Virus record (IMG/VR): IMGVR_UViG_2802429219_000002 | Direction: 5' to 3' (one strand) | DNA: 18,727 nucleotides | Source of the DNA: a virus | Taxonomy: Duplodnaviria; Heunggongvirae; Uroviricota; Caudoviricetes | Part shown: piece after piece, positions 1,901 to 17,772 of the stretch | Numbering within the stretch: position 1 is the stretch's first letter | Layout: each line of letters opens with the position of its first letter | Program-made: the position numbers and the translations under genes | The notes under the pieces: generated by a model | Told to the model about the DNA's origin: nothing | Seen by the model: the letters and a program-made list of their open reading frames with translations, nothing else | The model's database searches: none

Positions 1901-2692
1901 ATGAGCGAGAAATTGAAGATCGTCTATCGCCCTTTACAAGAACTGTCTCCGTATGCACACAACGCCAGGACACACAGCCCTGAGCAGGTGGCACAACTGG
2001 TAGAAAGCATTAAGCAATTCGGCTGGACTAATCCGGTGCTGATTGATGAAAAGGGCGAAATTATTGCTGGTCACGGTCGCGTTATGGCGGCTGAAGTGCT
2101 CAAAATGGATTCCATTCCGGTCATCGTTCTGTCTGGTTTGATGGATGATCAGAAAAAGGCGTACCGCCTGGCAGATAATCGCCTGCCGATGAATGCTGGC
2201 TGGGATGAAGATCTGTTACGGATGGAGCTGTCGGACCTAATCAATGCTGATTTTGATGTCTCCCTGACAGGCTTCAGCCCGACAGAAATTGATGAACTGT
2301 TGACGGATGTTTTGCCCGGTACAGGAAATGAGGAGGAGCCGTATACGACGAAAATTGATACGCCTGTTTATGAGCCGTCGGGCGGTAAACCGGATATCAG
2401 TGAACTGTACGACGATACGAAAACACAGGAGCTGATCAGCCGGATACGTTCGGCGTCCCTTGAGCCTGATATTGAGAAATTCCTCCTGTGTGCGGCAGAA
2501 CGTCACACGGTGTTTAATTTCAGCAGAATTGCGGACTATTACGCTCACGCCCCCGCTGAAATTCAGTGTTTTTTCGAGGAGTCGGCGCTGGTGATCATTG
2601 ATTATCAGCAGGCTATTGAAAATGGATTTGTCCGGATGACGCAGCGCATGGTGGAGATCATGCATGGTGGTGAGGAGGAGGAATATGCGTGA
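1901..2692 (+). CDS. ParB-like nuclease domain (ParB N-terminal/sulfiredoxin fold) protein with uncharacterised C-terminal region
   Basis: 263-aa ORF. The N-terminus carries the ParB signature: SPYAHNARTHSPEQVAQLVESIKQFGWTNPVLIDEKGEIIAGHGRVMAAEVLKMDSIPVIVL (box II-like IIAGHGR, IPVIV strand). The C-terminus ends in an acidic tail, GGEEEEYA. Sits where I recall ynaK in K-12 Rac (unverified). Confidence 0.8.
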   Translation: MSEKLKIVYRPLQELSPYAHNARTHSPEQVAQLVESIKQFGWTNPVLIDEKGEIIAGHGRVMAAEVLKMDSIPVIVLSGLMDDQKKAYRLADNRLPMNAGWDEDLLRMELSDLINADFDVSLTGFSPTEIDELLTDVLPGTGNEEEPYTTKIDTPVYEPSGGKPDISELYDDTKTQELISRIRSASLEPDIEKFLLCAAERHTVFNFSRIADYYAHAPAEIQCFFEESALVIIDYQQAIENGFVRMTQRMVEIMHGGEEEEYA

Positions 2693-3617
2693 TGATTTTT
2701 GCGCCTTTATTCTGACTCACGGGCGACCGGACAAAGTTCTGACTTACCGGACGTTGCGTCGTGCTGGCTATACCGGGAAAATTTTTATCGTTGTTGATGA
2801 TGAAGATAAGACACGGCATCAGTACATGGCTGAATTTGGTGAACAGGTGCTGGTGTTTTCCAAAGCCGATATCGCCAGTCGTTTTGACGAAGCCGATAAT
2901 TTCGGTGACCGCCGCTCAATTTTTTACGCCCGTAATGCCTGTTTCGACCTGGCAAAACTGGTCGGGTGTAAATACTTCATTCAGCTCGATGATGATTATC
3001 ACGAGTTCCAGTTTCGGGTGGATCGCAACTATGACCAGGCCTATTTTCCGATAAGGAAACTGGATGCGATCCTTTCTGAAATGCTGGCGTACTACGAATC
3101 AATACCTGCTCTTTCCATCGCTATGTCGCAGGGCGGGGATTTTCTTGGTGACAATGGCGGCCATGCTTCGTGGGTGAAACGCAAGGCAATGAACAGCTTT
3201 ATCTGTTCGGTTGATCGACCGTTCTCATTCATGGGGCGCATTAACGAGGATGTGAATACGTACACGAATCTCGGTCGCTGTGGTGAATTGTTTATGACGA
3301 TCGGTGCTGTCCAGTTAGGGCAGAAACAGACGCAGAAAAACAGCGGCGGAATGACCGAGCTGTATCTGGATTCCGGAACCTACGTTAAAAGTTTTTACTC
3401 CGTCATGTATGCGCCGTCGTGCGTAAAAATCTCACTGATGGGTGCCAGCCATAAACGCATTCACCATCAGGTCACCAGGAACAACGCTGCAGTAAAAATC
3501 CTTCACGAAAAATACAGGAAGAAGACACCCTGCATATCAATAGGGGTGACAAATGATTCCGTATTCGAAAGTCGAGTCTCTGGCAGCGTGCCGGATGACT
3601 GCACAACAAATCGCTGA
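2685..3617 (+). CDS. Hypothetical protein; possible GT-A-like nucleotide-sugar transferase fold (two DxD-like acidic motifs); function unknown
   Basis: Start ATG 2685 is preferred over the track's 2664 because GAGGAGGAGG (2672-2681) sits 4-6 nt upstream. Its start overlaps the ParB-like gene stop by 8 nt (ATGCGTGA), suggesting translational coupling. Hydrophobic strand + acidic motifs FILTHGRP, KIFIVVDDEDK and YFIQLDDDYHEF resemble a GT-A/Rossmann-like arrangement; this is a guess by eye only. Confidence 0.65.
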   Translation: MRDDFCAFILTHGRPDKVLTYRTLRRAGYTGKIFIVVDDEDKTRHQYMAEFGEQVLVFSKADIASRFDEADNFGDRRSIFYARNACFDLAKLVGCKYFIQLDDDYHEFQFRVDRNYDQAYFPIRKLDAILSEMLAYYESIPALSIAMSQGGDFLGDNGGHASWVKRKAMNSFICSVDRPFSFMGRINEDVNTYTNLGRCGELFMTIGAVQLGQKQTQKNSGGMTELYLDSGTYVKSFYSVMYAPSCVKISLMGASHKRIHHQVTRNNAAVKILHEKYRKKTPCISIGVTNDSVFESRVSGSVPDDCTTNR

Positions 3618-7593: not shown

Positions 7594-8689
7594 ACGGCTG
7601 CGTGATGAATCAATTGCTCATGCAGTCTGGATATCCCGCTATAGCACTGGTGTGGCTGCCAGAATGGTGAAAATACTGAATGACAGCGATGCGGAGCTTA
7701 CAGCTCGCCTGCTGGTAGCACTGGACAGCCTCGATCCTGGTAGTTTTACCGTTACGCGCCTGGAGTCACTTCTGGCGAGTGTCAGAGAGGTTAACCGCGC
7801 TGCTATTAACAGCATGTTTACCAGTCTCTCCGGAGAGCTGAACGAGCTGGCAATTTATGAGGCTGGTTATCAGTTAAGTCTGTTTGATTCTCTGCTACCT
7901 GATTTTGTTGCTGATGTTCACCCTCTGGTTGGTATATCTTCTGATGCACTTTACGCCGCTGCAATGGCGCGACCATTCCAGGGACGACTGCTCAGTGAGT
8001 GGGCCTTGGATCTTGAGGCGGATCGGCTCAGACGCATAACAAATACGGTGCGTCAGGGTTTTTTGCTGGGGGATACCAATGAGCAGATCGCAAGAAAAAT
8101 TCGGGGACATGTCAGCAAGGGATTTCAGGATGGTGCATTGCAGATGAGCCGGGCTAATGCGGCCAGCATTGCAAAAACAGCGGTTGGACATCTTGCTGCT
8201 ACTGCCCGTGAGAGTTTTGCCAGCGCGAATAATGATTTGATTAAGGGTAAGCAATGGTTATCAACGCTTGATAATCGTACTACGCCACAATGTCGAATCA
8301 GGGATCGCCTCAAATATACGCTGGATAATAAACCTGTAGGTCACAGTGTGCCTTATTTGCATGGGCCGGGAAAAATTCATTTCTGCTGCCGCTCAACGGA
8401 AACGTTCATTCTGAAATCAGCGAAGGAACTGGGTATTGATGTTCGTGATATTTCCCCGGCTGAGCGGGCCAGCATGGATGGCGTGGTGGCCGGAGATACA
8501 ACCTACAGGGAATGGTTTTTGCGTCAGCCTTACACCAGACAAAAACAGATTGTGGGGGAAACCCGGGCAAAGCTGATTCGGGATGGCGGTATGTCGCCAG
8601 ATGAATTTTACACCGATAAAGGCGAATGGCTGACGCTGAAGCAACTCCGTGAGCGTGATGCACAGGTATTCAGAAAAGCAGGGATTTAA
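7574..8689 (+). CDS. Head morphogenesis protein (phage Mu F-like / SPP1 gp7-like minor head protein)
   Basis: 371 aa, overlaps the portal 3' end by 20 nt. Central region KGKQWLSTLDNRTTPQCRIRDRLKYTLDNKPVGHSVPYLHGPGKIHFCCRSTE resembles the Mu-F family core (recalled). Confidence 0.75.
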   Translation: MMQTVNERLRDESIAHAVWISRYSTGVAARMVKILNDSDAELTARLLVALDSLDPGSFTVTRLESLLASVREVNRAAINSMFTSLSGELNELAIYEAGYQLSLFDSLLPDFVADVHPLVGISSDALYAAAMARPFQGRLLSEWALDLEADRLRRITNTVRQGFLLGDTNEQIARKIRGHVSKGFQDGALQMSRANAASIAKTAVGHLAATARESFASANNDLIKGKQWLSTLDNRTTPQCRIRDRLKYTLDNKPVGHSVPYLHGPGKIHFCCRSTETFILKSAKELGIDVRDISPAERASMDGVVAGDTTYREWFLRQPYTRQKQIVGETRAKLIRDGGMSPDEFYTDKGEWLTLKQLRERDAQVFRKAGI

Positions 8690-8709
8690 ATAAATCATTT
8701 ATTACAACA

Positions 8710-8733
8710 GGCTACCTTCGGGTGGCCTTTTTT
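8710..8733 (+). terminator. Rho-independent terminator-like hairpin downstream of the head morphogenesis gene
   Basis: GGCTACC (8710-8716), loop TTCG, GGTGGCC (8721-8727; one G-U pair), followed by TTTTTT (8728-8733). Confidence 0.6.
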
Positions 8734-10805: not shown

Positions 10806-10825
10806 GGGGCTTCGGCCCCATTTTT
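10806..10825 (+). terminator. Rho-independent terminator downstream of the capsid gene
   Basis: GGGGC (10806-10810), loop TTCG, GCCCC (10815-10819), then A and TTTTT (10821-10825). Confidence 0.65.
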
Positions 10826-12592: not shown

Positions 12593-13555
12593 GTGAGTTC
12601 AGGTGCAAAGGTTATCTCGGCATTTATCCGGGAGACGGTTGCAGGCACTACGCCAGCAAGTGGTGACTGGAGTTTATTAAAACGCACAAGCTGGGGAGTA
12701 AAACCCACCCAGAATAAAGGCGAAAATAATGAGATTGGTGGCTCCCGGATGGCTCAGGGGGCGACGCCTGGCACTGTGGATGTCGGCGGTGATGTTGGTA
12801 CCAAATTTCGCTGGGGTCAACATGATGATTTTCTTGCATCCTGTTTCGGCGCGGAATGGTCAGGCGATTCTCTGACAATGGGGAATGAGCGAATAACATT
12901 TTCTCTAGCGACCTATGCGTCCGATGTCGGAATTGCCTCTGTCGTCAGAGGAGCGCAGGTTGGCTCATGGAAAATGCAGATCCCTAACGACGGCGATATT
13001 ACAGCGACCGTAACCTTTGCCGGACTGGACTGGGAATCAAAGGCCGATGATACGAATTTTATCAAAGGCGAACCTGTGGATAGTGCAGGAAAGCTACGTT
13101 ATTCGTTTAAGGAGGTTTCAGCAGTAAGCCTGAATGGTGTTGCCGGAGGTAACGGTTTTTGTATCGACAGTTTTGATATTCAGTTCGATAACAAACTCCA
13201 GACACAGCGTTGTATCGGGACTGGCTCGCCTTATGCAGGAGCAAATATTCCGACTACTTTTACACCGTCCGGTACGGTGACGCTTTCATGGTCTAAAGCC
13301 GCGTGGGAAATCTGGAGTAAAACACTGACTGGAGAAACAGTTCCGTTCAGCTTTACGCTTTCGAATGGAGAGGGGGCATACACTTTCAGTTTCCCGAAGG
13401 TTCAGGTGTCAGGTGAATGGCCTGATGGGGGTAATAGCGACATTATCCAGGTTCAATTGAGCATTACCGCAGCAGATGAAGCACCTACGATAACCAGAAA
13501 AAAAAATTCCCCGGCTGCCGTGATCGCAAAAGCCAGTGCTGAGGCGATTAGTTGA
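12593..13555 (+). CDS. Major tail (tube) protein
   Basis: GTG start 12593 preceded by AGGAGG 12582-12587; 320 aa, Gly/Ser/Thr-rich beta-type composition; lies between the tail terminator and the G/GT chaperone genes, as in lambda (V). Confidence 0.7.
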   Translation: MSSGAKVISAFIRETVAGTTPASGDWSLLKRTSWGVKPTQNKGENNEIGGSRMAQGATPGTVDVGGDVGTKFRWGQHDDFLASCFGAEWSGDSLTMGNERITFSLATYASDVGIASVVRGAQVGSWKMQIPNDGDITATVTFAGLDWESKADDTNFIKGEPVDSAGKLRYSFKEVSAVSLNGVAGGNGFCIDSFDIQFDNKLQTQRCIGTGSPYAGANIPTTFTPSGTVTLSWSKAAWEIWSKTLTGETVPFSFTLSNGEGAYTFSFPKVQVSGEWPDGGNSDIIQVQLSITAADEAPTITRKKNSPAAVIAKASAEAIS

Positions 13556-13603
13556 TTTTCCGTTATTCCTCCTGTGGTACTGCCCTACAGGGGGACGCAT
13601 TGA

Positions 13604-14065
13604 ATGAGGTTATGGATGTTTATTCTTAATCAGAAAATTATCATTGGTGGAGAACGCTGGTTTACGCCAATGAAGGACTTAAAACCTGTAGACGGGTTAA
13701 AACTGTTGGTGGCAAGCAGCGATAACGATCAGTATCGCTCCCGTAATGCATTAATCCGTCGCCACATTGAGAAAATGGATGCCAGTTTGCACGTCGGAAC
13801 GAAGGAGTTTGATATTTCAAAGGTTTCCGAGGTGGATTCTGTTGATGATTTACTCATTGATAATGCCGCTCGTTATCTGCTGAAAGACTGGAAAGGGGTT
13901 GGTGAACTGGTTAATGGTGTTGAGGTTGCACTGGAATATACGGCAGAACGAGGGATCGCGCTGCTTAAGCAGAATCCAGAGTTGTACTGGCAGATCCTTG
14001 CAGAAGCAGCCAGCATCGCCCAGGGTAAAGAGCAGCAGAAGCAGGATACGATAAAAAAGCCATAG
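13604..14065 (+). CDS. Tail assembly chaperone (lambda gpG analogue)
   Basis: SD AGGGGGA 13589-13595 then ATG 13604; 153 aa, acidic, ending ...EQQKQDTIKKP*. The slippery heptamer A_AAA_AAG sits 4 nt before the stop. Confidence 0.75.
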   Translation: MRLWMFILNQKIIIGGERWFTPMKDLKPVDGLKLLVASSDNDQYRSRNALIRRHIEKMDASLHVGTKEFDISKVSEVDSVDDLLIDNAARYLLKDWKGVGELVNGVEVALEYTAERGIALLKQNPELYWQILAEAASIAQGKEQQKQDTIKKP

Positions 14066-14373
14066 CTGCCCAGCGGTGGTTATCGGAGTTCGGGGGAGAA
14101 AGGGGGGAAAAGGCAAGATGGAAGCGAGAAAAACTCAGGTTGCCACCGATACCGGAACCAGAAATAGACCCGGTGCTTAAGGAGTTGTTGTACGCCTATT
14201 CGGTAATATCCCGTGCCCGACGTTATGCTGGAATGGCTGGGGTGCCTTTGCCTTTATCTCTGACAGAGATAAATGAATATTTAGCCACTCATCCGGTATT
14301 GATTGAGCGCGATGAATTTGAAGCAGTGATCTTTGCACTGGATGACCAGTATTTTCAGGAGCAGTGTGTGTAG
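13604..14373 (+). CDS. Tail assembly chaperone GT fusion made by programmed -1 ribosomal frameshift (join 13604..14059 and 14059..14373)
   Basis: The -1 frame is open from the slippery site through 14373 (107 codons), reading KKAIAAQRWLSEFGGERGEKARWKREKLRLPPIPEPEIDPVLKELL...; the track shows this ORF only from an internal TTG at 14140. Confidence 0.65.
14053..14059 (+). promoter_or_regulatory. Slippery heptamer A_AAA_AAG for the G/GT -1 frameshift
   Basis: Zero-frame codons ATA AAA AAG (I K K) at 14051-14059; X_XXY_YYZ pattern with an open -1 frame downstream. Confidence 0.65.
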
Positions 14374-14493
14374 TTGTTAATTACGTACACTCTGTTACAG
14401 AGATGTGATGGTGTCTTTAATTAAATCGATGATGCTCCTGGAGAAAAGCATTGCGTGGCCTCGTAATCGCTATATCTACTATTATGTCGCCTG

Positions 14494-14518
14494 AAACCCA
14501 CTTCGCGGTGGGTTTTTT
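14494..14518 (+). terminator. Rho-independent terminator-like hairpin in the T-to-tape-measure intergenic region
   Basis: AAACCCAC (14494-14501), loop TTCGCG, GTGGGTTT (14508-14515), T-run to 14518; followed by SD AGGAG 14525-14529 and the tape measure ATG 14539. Confidence 0.55.
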
Positions 14519-14538
14519 GTTGTCAGGAGTTTTAATAA

Positions 14539-17500
14539 ATGGCAGAGCAAACCTCGCGTCTCGCAATAATTATTGATAGCACTGGAGCGAAAAATAATGC
14601 TGACAATCTGACCTCCTCATTAGTCAAAATGACGCAGGCTGGGGAAACTGCTGCAAATAGCGCAGGGAAAGTGACTAAGGCAACAGAAGATGAGAAGAAC
14701 GCGCTCGCAAAATTAAAAGCAGCTATTGATCCAGTTGGTGCCGCAATTGATACTGTCGGTCGACGCTATTCTGAATTAAAGAAATTTTTCGATAAAGGGC
14801 TTATTGATAAAGAAGAATATGAATTTCTTGTCCGTAAACTTAATGAAACCACAGAGGAATTGAGCGGGGTTGCGCAAGCGCAGAGAGAAGCCGAGAAGGC
14901 CGGAAAACTTGCTGCCGCCCAGCAGGAAGCGCAGGCTCAGGCCTTTCAAAGAATGCTGGACAAGATCGACCCTCTGGCTGCGGCGCTAAGAAATCTTGAA
15001 CAACAGCATGATGAACTTAATGCTGCGTTTGCATCCGGGAAAATAAATGGTTCTCAGTTTGAGAATTATAGCCGAAAAATACAGGAAACACGGCGAGAGC
15101 TTACCGGAGAGGCTCAGGCAGAGCGAGAAGCAGCAAAAGCGCATGATGAACAGGTTGTTGCTTTGCAACGTCTGATTGCTCAACTTGATCCTGTCGGAAC
15201 TGCTTTTAATCGTCTGGTAGAACAACAGAAACAGCTCAATGAAGCAAAAGCTAAGGGGATGCTTTCTCCTGAAATGTATGAGGAGCTTTCTGGAAAACTT
15301 CGTGCTATGCGGAGTGAGCTTGAGGTTACTCAATCACAATTAAGCAAAACCGGAATGTCGGCAAAACAAACGGCTTTTGCTATGCGCATGTTGCCTGCAC
15401 AAATGACGGATATTGTTGTTGGGTTGTCCACTGGTCAGTCGCCATTTATGGTGTTAATGCAGCAGGGCGGCCAGCTAAAAGATATGTTCGGTGGGATTGG
15501 CCCGGCGATCAAAGGTGTAGGTTCTTATGTGCTGGGATTAGTTAATCCTTTTACCCTGGCCGCAGCAGCCGTTGGGGTCTTAGGACTGGCTTACTATAAA
15601 GGCTCTCAGGAGCAGGACGAATTTAATAAATCTCTTATTCTTACCGGAAATCAGTTGGGGACAACCAGCGGGCAATTGGGCGATATAGCTCAACGTGCCG
15701 GGAATGCGGCTGATTCGACAACTGGTGCTGCGGCGGCAGTATTAAATCAGCTTGTGCGTTCGGGAAAGGTAGCGAGCAGTTCGCTGGAGCAAGTGACGAC
15801 AGCGATAGTAAAAACGAGCGAAGTAACAGGAATATCAACCGAACAACTGGTTAATGACTTCAATGAAATTGCAAAGGATCCTGTCAGTGCCATATCAAAA
15901 CTTAATGATCAGTACCATTTTCTGACACTTGCGACTTATAACCAGATTAAGGCGCTACAGGATGAAGGGAACCAGCAGGAGGCCGCCCGCATTGCGACAG
16001 AAGAATACTCATCCTCAATGATCCAGCGCACCAACCAGATTAAAGAAAATCTTGGTTATCTTGAGACTGCATGGAAAGCTGTCGCAGACTCCGCAAAATG
16101 GGCATGGGATTCCATGCTGGATATTGGCCGTGAGGCCTCCCTTGATCAAAAAATCTCAGATGTTCTCCGTCAAATTGATGAAATAGAAAAAAATACCCGA
16201 CCCGGAGTTTTCGGGTTAGGTGGCATTGGAGATGGCGGAGCTCAAAATAAAAGGCTGGCACGATTAAAGCAGCAATTGGGCGTACTTCAAGCAGAAAAAA
16301 TTGCTCAGGACGTACTAAATTCATCAATAAACGATTACAACAAGCGACAACAGGAAGGAATTGAACTCAGACAGAGAGCAGATGCCTTTTCAAAACAATA
16401 TCAGACCCGGGAGCAGCAGAGAGCTAGTGAACTTGCAAAACTGGAAAAGCTAAAGAATCAGTATTCAAAGGAAGAATATAATAATCTTATCGCTCAAATA
16501 AATGAGCGTTATAAAGATCCAAAGCAACCAAAGGCGAAAGGTTATTCTGATGATGCAGCCCAACGAATGATTGATCATCTGAATCAACAGAATGCGTTAC
16601 TAAGTTCACAAGCTGAGTTGACCGTTAAATTAAGTTCCTCTGAACAGGAACTGGTTAAGTGGCGTCAGCGGATTGCCGACCTAGAGTCACGACCATCAAC
16701 GAAATTAACCCAGGATCAGAAATCGCTTCTCTTACACCGGGAAGAAATAACCGCGTTGATGGAGAAAAATGTTGCGATTGAAAAAAATAACAGGCTAATC
16801 AAGGAATCCGCCGAAATAACAGCATGGCGTGATTCATTGCAGGCTTCGATTGATAATCGTCAGCAGGGGTATGATATTCAGATTGCTGGTTATGGGGTTG
16901 GCGATAAAAATCAGCAACGCCAGCAGGAATTACTGCGGATTGAACATGGATATAACAATCAGCGTCTGCAACTTGAACGTGACTATGCAGATAAATCCCG
17001 TGGAATGTCAGATCATGTTTTTCAAGAGAAAATGCAGGCTCTGAATGATGCTCTGGAACGGGAAAAAGAAATTGTCAGACAGAAAAACGAGCAGCTCGAT
17101 ATTCAGGCAGGAGACTGGGTTAGTGGTGCCTCCCAGGGATTCAATAACTGGCTGGATGACACTAAGGATATCAGTGAGCAGATAAAATCAACCACGACTC
17201 AGATGTTTGATGGGATGACCGATGCGCTGGGTGATTTTGTCACGACAGGCAAGGCAAATTTTCGTTCTTTCGCTACTTCCGTGATTTCGGATCTTAGTCG
17301 AATAGCATTAAAGGCTTCAATTACTGGGATTTTCGACAGCATTAGTAACAGTTCTTCTGGGGGGATTTTAGGAACTATCGGGAGTGCTATTAGTAAATTT
17401 ATTCCGAATGCAAAGGGCGGTGTTTATGAGTCTCCGTCATTGAGCACGTATTCGAACGGTATTTATGATTCCCCGCAATTTTTTGCTTTTGCAAAAGGGG

Positions 17501-17772
17501 CTGGTGTTTTTGGTGAGGCTGGACCGGAAGCTATTATGCCATTAACACGAACTTCCGATGGTTCTCTTGGTGTCAGAGCTATTAATAGTAAAAGTGGTAA
17601 TGGAGGCGGAGATATTACCTATGCCCCTGTATACCAAATCACTATTCAAAATGACGGCCAGAATGGAGAGATTGGCCCTCAGGCAATAAAAGCACTTATG
17701 GGGATGGTTGATCAGCGGGTGCAGGGCAATCTGTTAAATATGCGACGTGATGGGGGAATGTTAAGTGGCTAA
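14539..17772 (+). CDS. Tail tape measure protein (lambda gpH analogue)
   Basis: 1077-aa ORF, long Ala/Gln/Glu/Lys-rich coiled-coil-like N-terminal half, hydrophobic central segment ([27 protein letters not shown]), located between GT and M. Confidence 0.9.

Follow-up and report, generated by a model that had tools for sequence, protein, structure and literature searches.

The window, an 18,727-nt stretch of DNA that belongs to a Rac-type lambdoid prophage of E. coli, contains a tail operon in which a pair of tail assembly chaperone genes, G and T, precedes the gene for the tail tape measure protein (TMP); the features of the junction between them are collected in Table 1. Gene order is that of lambda G/T–H, including a chaperone pair linked by −1 frameshift ahead of the tape measure gene. 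When G and T are conceptually fused, the 252-aa product fits PHROG 313 ('tail assembly chaperone') in a single stretch (profile positions 20–246 of 258, E 8e-51), from which it follows that T ends at 14373. The first-pass annotation had reported a non-coding gap of 165 nt between T and TMP, and with the T stop at 14373 and the TMP ATG at 14539 its coordinates, 14374–14538, are right. The elements described within it were likewise found in place, namely the short inverted repeat CTGTTACAG, a 28-codon mini-ORF without Shine-Dalgarno sequence and a canonical terminator just ahead of the TMP ribosome-binding site. In lambda, T adjoins H directly and no terminator separates the two, whereas the present junction is interrupted by 165 nt that include a terminator. 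The 3′ end of T is itself variable: its C-terminal tail differs between junction alleles, and 2-nt deletions in the (GT)4 tract, seen in three loci, shift the T stop to 14406–14408.

Table 1. Features at the chaperone–tape measure junction (positions in the window)
Feature	Position	Strand	Basis and remarks
Tail assembly chaperone G	13616..14065	+	PHROG 313, E 5e-46; RefSeq name YdaY; 3′ part is ydaY in K-12
Slippery heptamer A_AAA_AAG, −1 frameshift into T	14053..14059	+	Read from sequence; fused product matches PHROG 313
T-specific part of GT product	14066..14373	+	Stop TAG 14371–14373; last 6 codons (from 14356) allele-specific
Left direct-repeat copy TTTTCAGGAG, imperfect, 10 nt	14352..14361	+	9/10 identical to right copy, spacing 168
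Orphan insert (cassette) between direct repeats	14362..14519	+	About 158 nt; holds new T tail, cargo and terminator
(GT)4 microsatellite at 3′ end of T	14364..14371	+	2-nt deletions in three loci
Cargo proper	14374..14492	+	119 nt, 39.5% G+C, pi 0.0037 among relatives
Predicted imperfect hairpin 1	14377..14424	+	One varying pair only (G.U to A-U), no compensatory change
CTGTTACAG palindrome	14392..14400	+	Within predicted hairpin 1
Mini-ORF, 28 codons from ATG	14408..14494	+	29 aa from alternative GTG 14405; stop TGA 14492–14494
Putative intrinsic terminator	14493..14522	+	Stem-loop 14493–14516, T-run 14513–14518, then GTTG
Right direct-repeat copy TTGTCAGGAG	14520..14529	+	Includes TMP Shine-Dalgarno AGGAG 14525–14529
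Tail tape measure protein gene (TMP)	14539..17772	+	RefSeq and GenBank annotation; 5′ part is ynaA/tmpR in K-12

The first-pass annotation had allowed for the spacer being absent or unconserved in relatives, which is not what the genomes show. An identical copy (100%) lies in E. coli K-12 at 1426289–1426453, between ydaY and ynaA, and the spacer recurs in about 1,045 of the 5,426 complete genomes of this species, at the T–TMP junction every time and without annotation. Searches with the 119-nt cargo by blastn returned only copies of this element in its usual setting (E. coli genomes, phages and plasmids) and detected no similarity to the cargo of other junction alleles or to the HK97 moron, while a pattern scan of genome contigs placed the cargo in Escherichia and Shigella only.

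The spacer occupies a slot of highly variable content. Comparative alignment of related prophages, proposed earlier as a check, gave gap sizes of 38–39, 163–165, 485, 570, 746–797, 1159 and 1783 nt among 80 IMG/VR relatives and the E. coli genomes, and the cargo genes of other alleles encode a protein of the Ail/Lom family (PHROG 108, E 9e-47), a membrane/zinc-ribbon protein of 122 aa or a KilA-N-like regulator. With at least eight different contents, the chaperone/tape-measure junction of Rac-type prophages behaves as a slot that takes up cargo repeatedly. Among its alleles in E. coli the 165-nt spacer is the most frequent, and it holds no supported gene. In near-identical phages the insert stands as an alternative to gene-carrying cassettes. 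Sister prophages with flanks 92–97% identical to the present locus (E. coli Ceylon31, NZ_CP076270; IMG/VR loci L059, L066 and L068–L072) have an Ail/Lom cassette instead: homology ends at 14355, within the last T codons, and returns at 14505–14510, at the terminator T-run/Shine-Dalgarno. These breakpoints, together with the variability of the slot, support the earlier suggestion of a scar of module exchange. The Ail/Lom cassette and the present insert each have their own terminator 21–23 nt before the ATG, but the former is longer (746–796 nt), has an AT-rich leader and a gene for an outer-membrane beta-barrel protein of 178–185 aa, and forms a stronger hairpin (−17.8 kcal/mol). It is also much rarer in E. 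coli, with 19 of 1,076 matching records at 80–90% identity, of which the one inspected (Ceylon31) has the cassette.

The description of the gap as unusual did not survive comparison with HK97 (AF069529), in which the same tail-operon slot is occupied by gene 15 and a putative terminator. Located between the chaperone genes 13/14 and the tape measure gene 16, gene 15 was the first element to be called a moron, and a superinfection-exclusion function has been shown for its product (PMC3594210). Compared with phages whose junction is tighter, both gene 15 and the present insert are additional DNA, and the two loci share the order of GT stop, inserted DNA, factor-independent terminator, 12–22 nt and TMP start, the putative HK97 terminator following gene 15 and lying 12 nt before H. 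They differ in what is inserted: the HK97 gap of 289 nt encodes a 62-aa membrane protein behind a strong AAGGAGG ribosome-binding site, whereas no gene is supported in the present insert, where the 28-codon ORF lacks both a Shine-Dalgarno sequence and a hydrophobic segment. The two inserts have no sequence similarity. Measured by the marks of a moron, the insert is extra DNA where close relatives have different DNA or none (gap alleles of 38–1783 nt), it ends in a putative factor-independent terminator of its own (stem-loop 14493–14516 followed by T6), and its base composition is unlike that of the surrounding genes (cargo 39.5% G+C, compared with 49.4% for T, 45.3% for G and 45.0% for TMP), which is weak evidence on just 119 nt; a supported gene able to benefit the lysogen is missing, the 28-codon ORF being the sole candidate.

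The insert is bounded by an imperfect direct repeat, and if the 9/10 repeat were collapsed, only 3 nt would separate the T stop from the TMP ATG in the resulting compact junction. Such a junction was found in no relative. A gapped pattern for it returned only 13 unrelated matches in IMG/VR, and a synthetic collapsed junction aligned to E. coli genomes as a split alignment with the insert present in 58 of 58 full-length matches among 60 sampled rows.

The second element of the junction is the terminator-like hairpin. Its sequence has what is expected of an intrinsic terminator, that is, a GC-rich stem-loop with a U-rich tract directly after it on the transcribed strand: a perfect 8-bp inverted repeat (14494–14501 with 14508–14515), extendable to 10 pairs, has a predicted energy of about −12 to −13 kcal/mol and runs into T6. 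The scan used for such sites is loose when taken alone (28 sites in the window compared with 18.8 ± 5.0 in shuffles). Recurrence at the junction is more telling, since a hairpin and T-run end 18–26 nt before the TMP ATG in HK97 and in all 13 of the junction alleles inspected, and the hairpins among them have at least seven unrelated sequences; to judge from these sequences, this is far beyond chance. Even the near-empty allele of 38–39 nt has a hairpin and T-run of its own. The alleles differ in detail, for example by a 2-nt loop indel that yields a C(UUCG)G tetraloop and by changes in the T-run. That every allele keeps such a hairpin may point to a general function, insulation or a step-down in expression, at the place where high-copy tail genes give way to low-copy ones.

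Taken together, the spacer is a real but fairly ordinary feature. We consider it probable that the T–TMP junction is a hot spot at which foreign cassettes (morons) are gained and exchanged, and that the 165-nt spacer is an orphan insert composed of a non-coding scar of cassette exchange and a putative intrinsic terminator, the 119-nt cargo most likely being a non-functional remnant. In the lysogen, the terminator would halt ordinary RNA polymerase that comes in from the upstream side, having started, for instance, at the trkG cargo gene or at spurious promoters, with the effect that TMP and the distal tail genes stay silent. In lytic growth, polymerase modified by a Q-like protein would pass most or all of the terminator, and residual termination or stabilisation by the 3′ hairpin may then lower expression stepwise between the genes for tube and chaperone, needed in high copy, and those for TMP and tip, needed in low copy. 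In having a GC-rich stem with a U-run on the sense strand, the putative terminator resembles the intrinsic terminators of Q-antiterminated lambdoid late operons.

Emphasis may be placed differently, on the terminator as a device by which the late operon attenuates its own transcription or stabilises its mRNA, the cargo being irrelevant filler. Some late transcripts would then end, or be 3′-protected, after G/T, and tube and chaperone messages would exceed those for TMP and the tip, matching virion stoichiometry. The first-pass annotation had also considered an attenuator that lowers TMP expression, and for the putative terminator by itself this is plausible from its retention in the 38–39-nt allele, where there is nothing to insulate. 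The hairpin lies exactly at the boundary between many-copy and few-copy genes as these are known from lambda, in which the tube protein V and chaperone G are needed in many copies and H and the tip proteins in few. Putative terminators are annotated in HK97 also before and after the major tail gene, and the window has other such hairpins at 1850, 8709 and 10806; terminator-like hairpins on the + strand follow its head-morphogenesis and major head genes. Against this reading, and in favour of the preferred one, a Q-like antiterminator gene precedes the late genes in two Rac-type prophages with the spacer: in one of them the gene (PHROG 753, E 6e-79) is located ahead of the lysis genes, and the same DUF1133–lysis–trkG order recurs in the second genome. 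Polymerase modified by Q is known to pass intrinsic terminators unhindered. Moreover, the natural variants 14512 G>T, 14513 T>C and 14499 C>A weaken the hairpin or T-run without compensation. An attenuator of the late operon is considered unlikely, and the match of message levels to virion stoichiometry equally so.

A different proposal gives function to the cargo, as a mini-moron that benefits the lysogen through a small RNA of about 90–140 nt ending at the terminator or through a 28-aa micropeptide, and that selection keeps near-invariant. The RNA would possibly bind Hfq via the A/U-rich segment 14470–14490 and the U-tail. The suggestion draws mainly on the diversity of the cargo, which has 6–8 substitutions in 119 nt and the lowest pi of any segment examined (0.0037, compared with 0.022–0.027 in the coding flanks, 0.049 in the tube–G intergenic region and about 0.28 at synonymous sites of the flanks), with high-frequency polymorphisms close on either side, within about 12 nt (14361; 14504/14513). 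Such invariance could reflect a constraint at the nucleotide level and to that extent counts against a scar. However, a 300-nt stretch of TMP coding sequence (14689–14988) exhibits the same trough in synonymous diversity (pS 0.03–0.06); recent shared ancestry is therefore enough to explain the invariance of the cargo, and low diversity was rejected as proof of selection. The layout of insert, terminator and about 20 nt before TMP parallels HK97 gene 15, and the low G+C of the cargo relative to its flanks (45–49%) also fits a mini-moron.

Examination of the cargo for an RNA or a peptide went mostly against that proposal. The whole spacer folds somewhat better than its shuffles (z = −2.28, with 1 of 200 shuffles as good), and the three variants within hairpin 1 (3/3) are all compatible with its structure, the latter a point for the proposal. 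Among 53 pairs none was changed on both sides and the covariation score equalled that of shuffles (20 distinct haplotypes, 17 aligned); the covariation check recommended for the hairpin therefore gave no compensatory pair, in a test without power on sequences 96–100% identical. Rfam returned no family at the gathering threshold across the whole window, and an E-value scan of 14300–14600 had as its best match an sroH terminator segment with 14.7 bits against a threshold of 80. The palindrome CTGTTACAG is at chance level (0.20 matches expected per window; at least one in 38 of 200 shuffles), and a LexA box was rejected on this frequency and on its 1-nt rather than 8-nt spacer. The mini-ORF is at chance level too, several ORFs of 20–49 codons overlapping the gap on both strands. 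Its ATG is lost in one clade (ATG>ATA at 14410) and a nonsense codon interrupts it in the locus L050 (TGG>TGA at 14458). Of its seven substitutions three are synonymous, which speaks for the proposal, and four non-synonymous. Gene callers reported it just twice, as 'hypothetical', and it matches no PHROG family. A degenerate back-translated pattern revealed no diverged homologs, 37 of 37 metagenome matches being the same element at ≥96.6% nucleotide identity. The small RNA or leader peptide raised by the first-pass annotation consequently finds no support in the Rfam, variant or homolog results.

Searches for transcripts agree with this. The identical K-12 copy has no annotated small RNA or small protein. 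The available part of the K-12 Term-seq tables of Adams et al. has no 3′ end near 1426431–1426440, the sole end being on the minus strand inside ynaA; the accessible portions of the TRS termini study tables, the RIL-seq small-RNA prediction set and the supplement of the ROSE in-vitro transcription study contain nothing at the spacer, and an RNA-seq compendium of novel K-12 transcripts has none there. A sigma-70-like site on the + strand is absent from 14300–14500; the same scan is also blank for the Ail/Lom cassette and HK97 gene 15, and having missed both of these positive-control morons it was dropped as an argument against an internal promoter, which leaves a mini-moron unaffected by it. 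A functional mini-moron is accordingly regarded as quite unlikely. About as unlikely is its narrower version, a gene-less 'RNA moron' in which the cassette of roughly 140 nt would be expressed by the prophage as a small RNA that starts at a weak promoter just behind the T stop, ends at the terminator and has a 3′ region of Hfq type, rich in A/U; just as doubtful is the selection that it invokes for near-invariance (pi 0.004) across about a fifth of E. coli, K-12 included, in tail modules differing by up to 7%. If the cargo were expressed, it would represent a very widespread and overlooked E. coli prophage RNA, but present evidence does not favour expression.

Finally, a translation-coupled leader of the pyrBI/pyrE type, in which a ribosome at the mini-ORF stop would block the hairpin and let polymerase enter TMP while CUCCUG (14435–14440) could mask the Shine-Dalgarno sequence at 14524–14529, is highly improbable: the mini-ORF stop does overlap the first stem base of the terminator, the minimum-free-energy fold does pair 14430–14441 with 14524–14535, and the CUCCUG segment is also complementary to 14356–14363 at the 3′ end of T as an alternative pairing, but the masking helix was rejected as conserved on three independent one-sided variants (14440 G>T, 14524 C>A and, in about 25 loci, 14525 A>T) that break it without compensation, the alternative pairing is broken by 14361 G>T, the mini-ORF has the defects of start, reading frame and ribosome-binding site described above and is thus no conserved translatable ORF in control of the terminator, and other junction alleles have terminators with no comparable ORF.

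Returning to the preferred reading of an exchange scar with a putative terminator, it is in line with K-12 data, where an RNA-seq compendium defines a transcription unit trkG-ynaK-ydaY and scores the ydaY/ynaA pair as not co-transcribed, with P = 0.25 (PMC10392735 Tables S5, S6). This boundary could alternatively arise from the action of Rho on the T region, most of which is untranslated, or just from the annotated gap of 473 nt. The practical value of the reading is mainly one of annotation: that ydaY–ynaA interval, formerly 'empty', can now be divided into the T frameshift extension, the 165-nt cassette remnant, a putative intrinsic terminator and the TMP ribosome-binding site.

Taken together, the comparisons lead us to file the spacer between the tail chaperone and tape measure (TMP) genes (165 nt, 14374-14538) best as a gene-less or decayed allele of a known moron slot, a moron being an extra autonomous transcription unit in a phage late operon. 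The chaperone/TMP junction is the archetypal moron slot in the literature (HK97; PMC3594210). The HK97 record places the end of GT at 8145, gene 15 at 8203-8391, a putative terminator at 8398-8422 and the start of H at 8435, whereas lambda itself has no gap at this junction. The gap had been called unusual in the first-pass annotation; given the HK97 arrangement, it is not so for lambdoid siphophages. The element appears to work like a moron and sits in the moron position: it is extra DNA, has its own terminator and holds a cargo (14374-14492) of deviant composition, at 39.5% G+C versus 45-49%, in which no gene is supported.

The end of T, the -1 frameshift extension of chaperone gene G, is placed at 14373, because the conceptual GT fusion (252 aa) matches PHROG 313 'tail assembly chaperone' in a single stretch (profile positions 20-246/258, E 8e-51); past the slippery site, the -1 frame is open as far as TAG 14371-14373. 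The 165-nt gap, the palindrome, the mini-ORF and the terminator before the TMP ribosome binding site were all seen where the first-pass annotation had put them. Neither the palindrome (pattern expected 0.2 times per window, present in 38 of 200 shuffles) nor the mini-ORF (20-49-codon ORFs overlap the gap on both strands) is above chance.

Features at the chaperone/tape measure junction (window coordinates)
Feature	Position	Strand	Basis or remark
Chaperone gene G	13616-14065	+	3' end reads ...ATA AAA AAG CCA TAG
Slippery heptamer A_AAA_AAG, canonical -1 site	14053-14059	+	read from sequence
Imperfect 10-nt direct repeat bracketing insert, TTTTCAGGAG; TTGTCAGGAG	14352-14361; 14520-14529	+	repeat search
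Palindrome CTGTTACAG	14392-14400	+	read from sequence
Mini-ORF	ATG 14408 (or GTG 14405) to TGA 14492-14494	+	ORF reading
Perfect 8-bp inverted repeat AAACCCAC/GTGGGTTT	14494-14501 + 14508-14515	+	then T6 run
TMP, 1077 aa	ATG 14539	+	AGGAG at 14525-14529 upstream

The T-TMP junction is variable as a slot. Among 80 IMG/VR loci with a G homolog, in which the distance from T stop to TMP ATG was measured, ~60 carry the present element (gap 163-165 nt), and six loci of a more distant clade have 38-39 nt, with little beyond a hairpin GCCCGGCATGTCCGGG-TATTTTTAT and then a Shine-Dalgarno (SD) sequence. Longer gaps accommodate a 120-aa ORF with no PHROG match (485 nt), a 122-aa membrane and zinc-ribbon protein (570 nt; PHROG 31852), an Ail/Lom outer-membrane protein (746-796 nt; PHROG 108, E 9e-47; annotated in RefSeq in E. 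coli strain Ceylon31), a membrane-anchored protein of 132-152 aa (797 and 1159 nt; the 132-aa form N-terminally anchored, PHROG 2320) and contents that include a KilA-N-like regulator (1783 nt; PHROG 129). By analogy with HK97 gp15, the uncharacterised cargo proteins found in the gaps of five loci (L081, L087, L088, L090 and L091) may be candidates for superinfection exclusion or defence. On either side of the gap, phages with the Ail/Lom gene match the window at 92-97% identity; their homology is lost at 14355, six codons short of the T stop, and is back within the terminator at 14505-14510 (3' arm and T-run). Accordingly, the C-terminal tail of T is allele-specific beyond the conserved ...EFEAVIFALDD. 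A scar of module exchange, offered earlier as one option, is thus supported by the variability of the slot and by these breakpoints in sister phages. The last T codons also contain a (GT)4 microsatellite (14364-14371), and 2-base deletions in three loci (L008, L114, L123) move the T stop to 14406-14408, with 11 residues added; the extreme C-terminus of T therefore seems free of constraint.

The inverted repeat and T6 run compose a textbook intrinsic terminator (14493-14522) with a predicted energy of about -12 to -13 kcal/mol. Hairpin and T-run are present in all thirteen junction alleles examined and in HK97, the stem ending 18-26 nt before the TMP ATG, with energies of -6 to -18 kcal/mol and at least 7 unrelated stem sequences. 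The scan used is loose, and on shuffled sequence its rate is ~5e-4 terminator-like sites per nt and strand; at that rate, such recurrence of independent hairpins at one position lies far beyond chance. The predicted terminator is canonical and its position conserved. The hairpin is also the most polymorphic part of the present element: in about 40% of loci a 2-nt loop indel leaves a C(UUCG)G tetraloop in place of UUCGCG, the T-run varies in length, substitutions occur at 14499 (C>A), 14512 (G>T) and 14513 (T>C), and no compensation for any of these was seen among the relatives.

From 14000 to 14700 the window matches the cryptic Rac prophage of E. coli K-12 at 100% identity (K-12 coordinate = window coordinate + 1,411,915). 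There the spacer is NC_000913.3 1426289-1426453, between ydaY, which corresponds to the 3' part of G, and ynaA/tmpR, which corresponds to the 5' part of TMP; in that interval the RefSeq annotation of K-12 shows neither an RNA gene nor a small protein. In the lysogen, the terminator would stop unmodified RNA polymerase arriving from upstream, where trkG, a constitutively expressed cargo gene of the same prophage, may be the source of such transcription; in lytic growth, Q-modified polymerase would read through. Two spacer-carrying genomes have a Q-like antiterminator gene upstream of the lysis genes and trkG (PHROG 753, E 6e-79, in one; the same DUF1133 family and gene order in the other). A K-12 RNA-seq compendium reports a trkG-ynaK-ydaY unit ending before ynaA and scores ydaY-to-ynaA as not co-transcribed (P = 0.25, with 0.78 for ynaK-to-ydaY), a score that depends on intergenic distance too (PMC10392735). 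The unit boundary is consistent with the terminator stopping upstream polymerase. Rho acting on the largely untranslated T region could instead account for this boundary, and the Term-seq tables searched for K-12 list no 3' end at the hairpin. An attenuator or step-down function of the hairpin, as the first-pass annotation proposed, is less likely; the idea is kept alive by alleles that have no cargo and yet retain the hairpin. The minus-strand 3' end that a supplementary table of Adams et al. 2021 gives antisense to ynaA, at window 14854 (-) (K-12 1426769), implies that antisense transcription crosses the 5' part of TMP in K-12.

Regarding the origin of the insert (14362-14519), a 9/10 repeat anywhere in 221 nt is expected ~0.7 times by chance, and one with both copies within ~10 nt of independently defined breakpoints ~0.01 times (own estimate). 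Collapse of the bracketing repeat would yield ...GAC CAG TAT TTT CAG GAG TTT TAA TAA ATG GCA, placing the T stop 3 nt before the TMP ATG and the SD sequence inside the last T codons, a compact junction like that of lambda. No extant allele of this kind was found in IMG/VR, and in the E. coli search 58 of 58 full-length matches among 60 sampled rows were split in two, with the insert present; the collapse is therefore a step that we infer.

The cargo is an orphan, with no homologs among the other cargo alleles, the HK97 moron, other E. coli genome sites, phage records or plasmids. That it represents a widespread invariant RNA moron is improbable. The spacer folds better than its shuffles (z = -2.28), the prediction comprising, besides the terminator, an imperfect hairpin of 48 nt (14377-14424) and a long-range helix. 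Two-sided changes occur in 0 of 53 predicted pairs, among spacer sequences too alike (96-100% identical) for this to weigh against the structure. The promoter scan gives none for the cargo, but it is equally blind to those of the Ail/Lom cassette and HK97 gene 15, and so carries little weight against independent transcription of the cargo. With pair changes never two-sided and the mini-ORF not conserved, the small RNA or leader peptide suggested at first finds no support. As a gene, the mini-ORF is not supported: it lacks an SD sequence, the most diverged clade (L074-L080) has ATA in place of its ATG while keeping GTG 14405 and 14411, one locus (L050) has a nonsense codon (TGG>TGA at 14458), and it has no diverged relatives and no match to PHROG families. 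Its changes overall are 3 synonymous and 4 non-synonymous; the peptide has only two automatic 'hypothetical protein' calls in a 15-billion-protein collection, and a degenerate peptide-level pattern retrieves 37 metagenome loci, all of the same DNA (at least 96.6% identity). An SD-masking role of the long-range helix, which pairs CUCCUG (14435-14440) with the TMP SD sequence, is dismissed as a conserved feature, since three one-sided variants that arose independently disrupt the helix; about 25 loci carry one of the three.

Invariance of the cargo is the sole observation that could point to function. Across about 55 haplotypes (93-100% identical overall), the cargo (119 nt) has 6-8 substitutions and pi 0.0037, compared to pi 0.022-0.027 in the coding flanks (pS 0.26-0.30, pN 0.05-0.09) and 0.061 in the terminator and SD segment. 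The tube-G intergenic region (13556-13615; 15 substitutions/60 nt, pi 0.049) is the most substitution-rich segment among relatives, in sharp contrast to the invariant cargo 800 nt downstream. An equally deep synonymous trough lies in TMP at 14689-14988 (300 nt; pS 0.03-0.06 vs about 0.3 on either side), either a recombination/sweep block or unrecognised constraint; recent common ancestry via recombination can therefore yield troughs without selection. We do not take the cargo invariance as a sign of function.

Of 5,426 complete E. coli genomes, 1,046 have the spacer, in nearly all cases as a single copy, and among one-genome-per-species representatives it was found in Escherichia and Shigella only; every record examined has it at the same junction, never annotated. 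In E. coli ET734 (L006 2440-2597), IS1 is inserted in the spacer at ~window 14462, in a degraded prophage whose TMP is interrupted by further IS1 copies. Several records derived from E. coli prophages match the region at 98% identity, and GenBank ON032529 matches it at 100%. The latter ('Salmonella phage SPF_0923, complete genome'; L134, ON032529.1 28143-35262) ends in sitABCD, uspF, ompN and a pyruvate-flavodoxin oxidoreductase gene, and therefore looks like a prophage fragment with chromosomal flank rather than the genome of a free phage; in E. coli K-12, Rac is adjoined by uspF, ompN and the oxidoreductase gene, there named ydbK.

Overall, the window represents a lambdoid late region, in the order trkG (306-1763), ParB-like gene, terminase small and large subunits, portal, head morphogenesis, scaffold, major head, tube (12593-13555), G/GT and TMP. 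The K+ transporter gene trkG (485 aa), which has the lysis genes on one side and the ParB-like and terminase genes on the other and is followed by a strong terminator-like hairpin (1850-1873), is a further insertion of the moron type in the late operon that holds the spacer. Further terminator-like hairpins lie on the + strand between the head-morphogenesis and scaffold genes (8709-8728) and after the major head protein gene (10806-10819). An ORF between the ParB-like and small terminase genes (2664-3617) matches PHROG 842 'beta-glucosyl-HMC-alpha-glucosyltransferase' (E 4e-102), a label that is odd in a lambdoid prophage.
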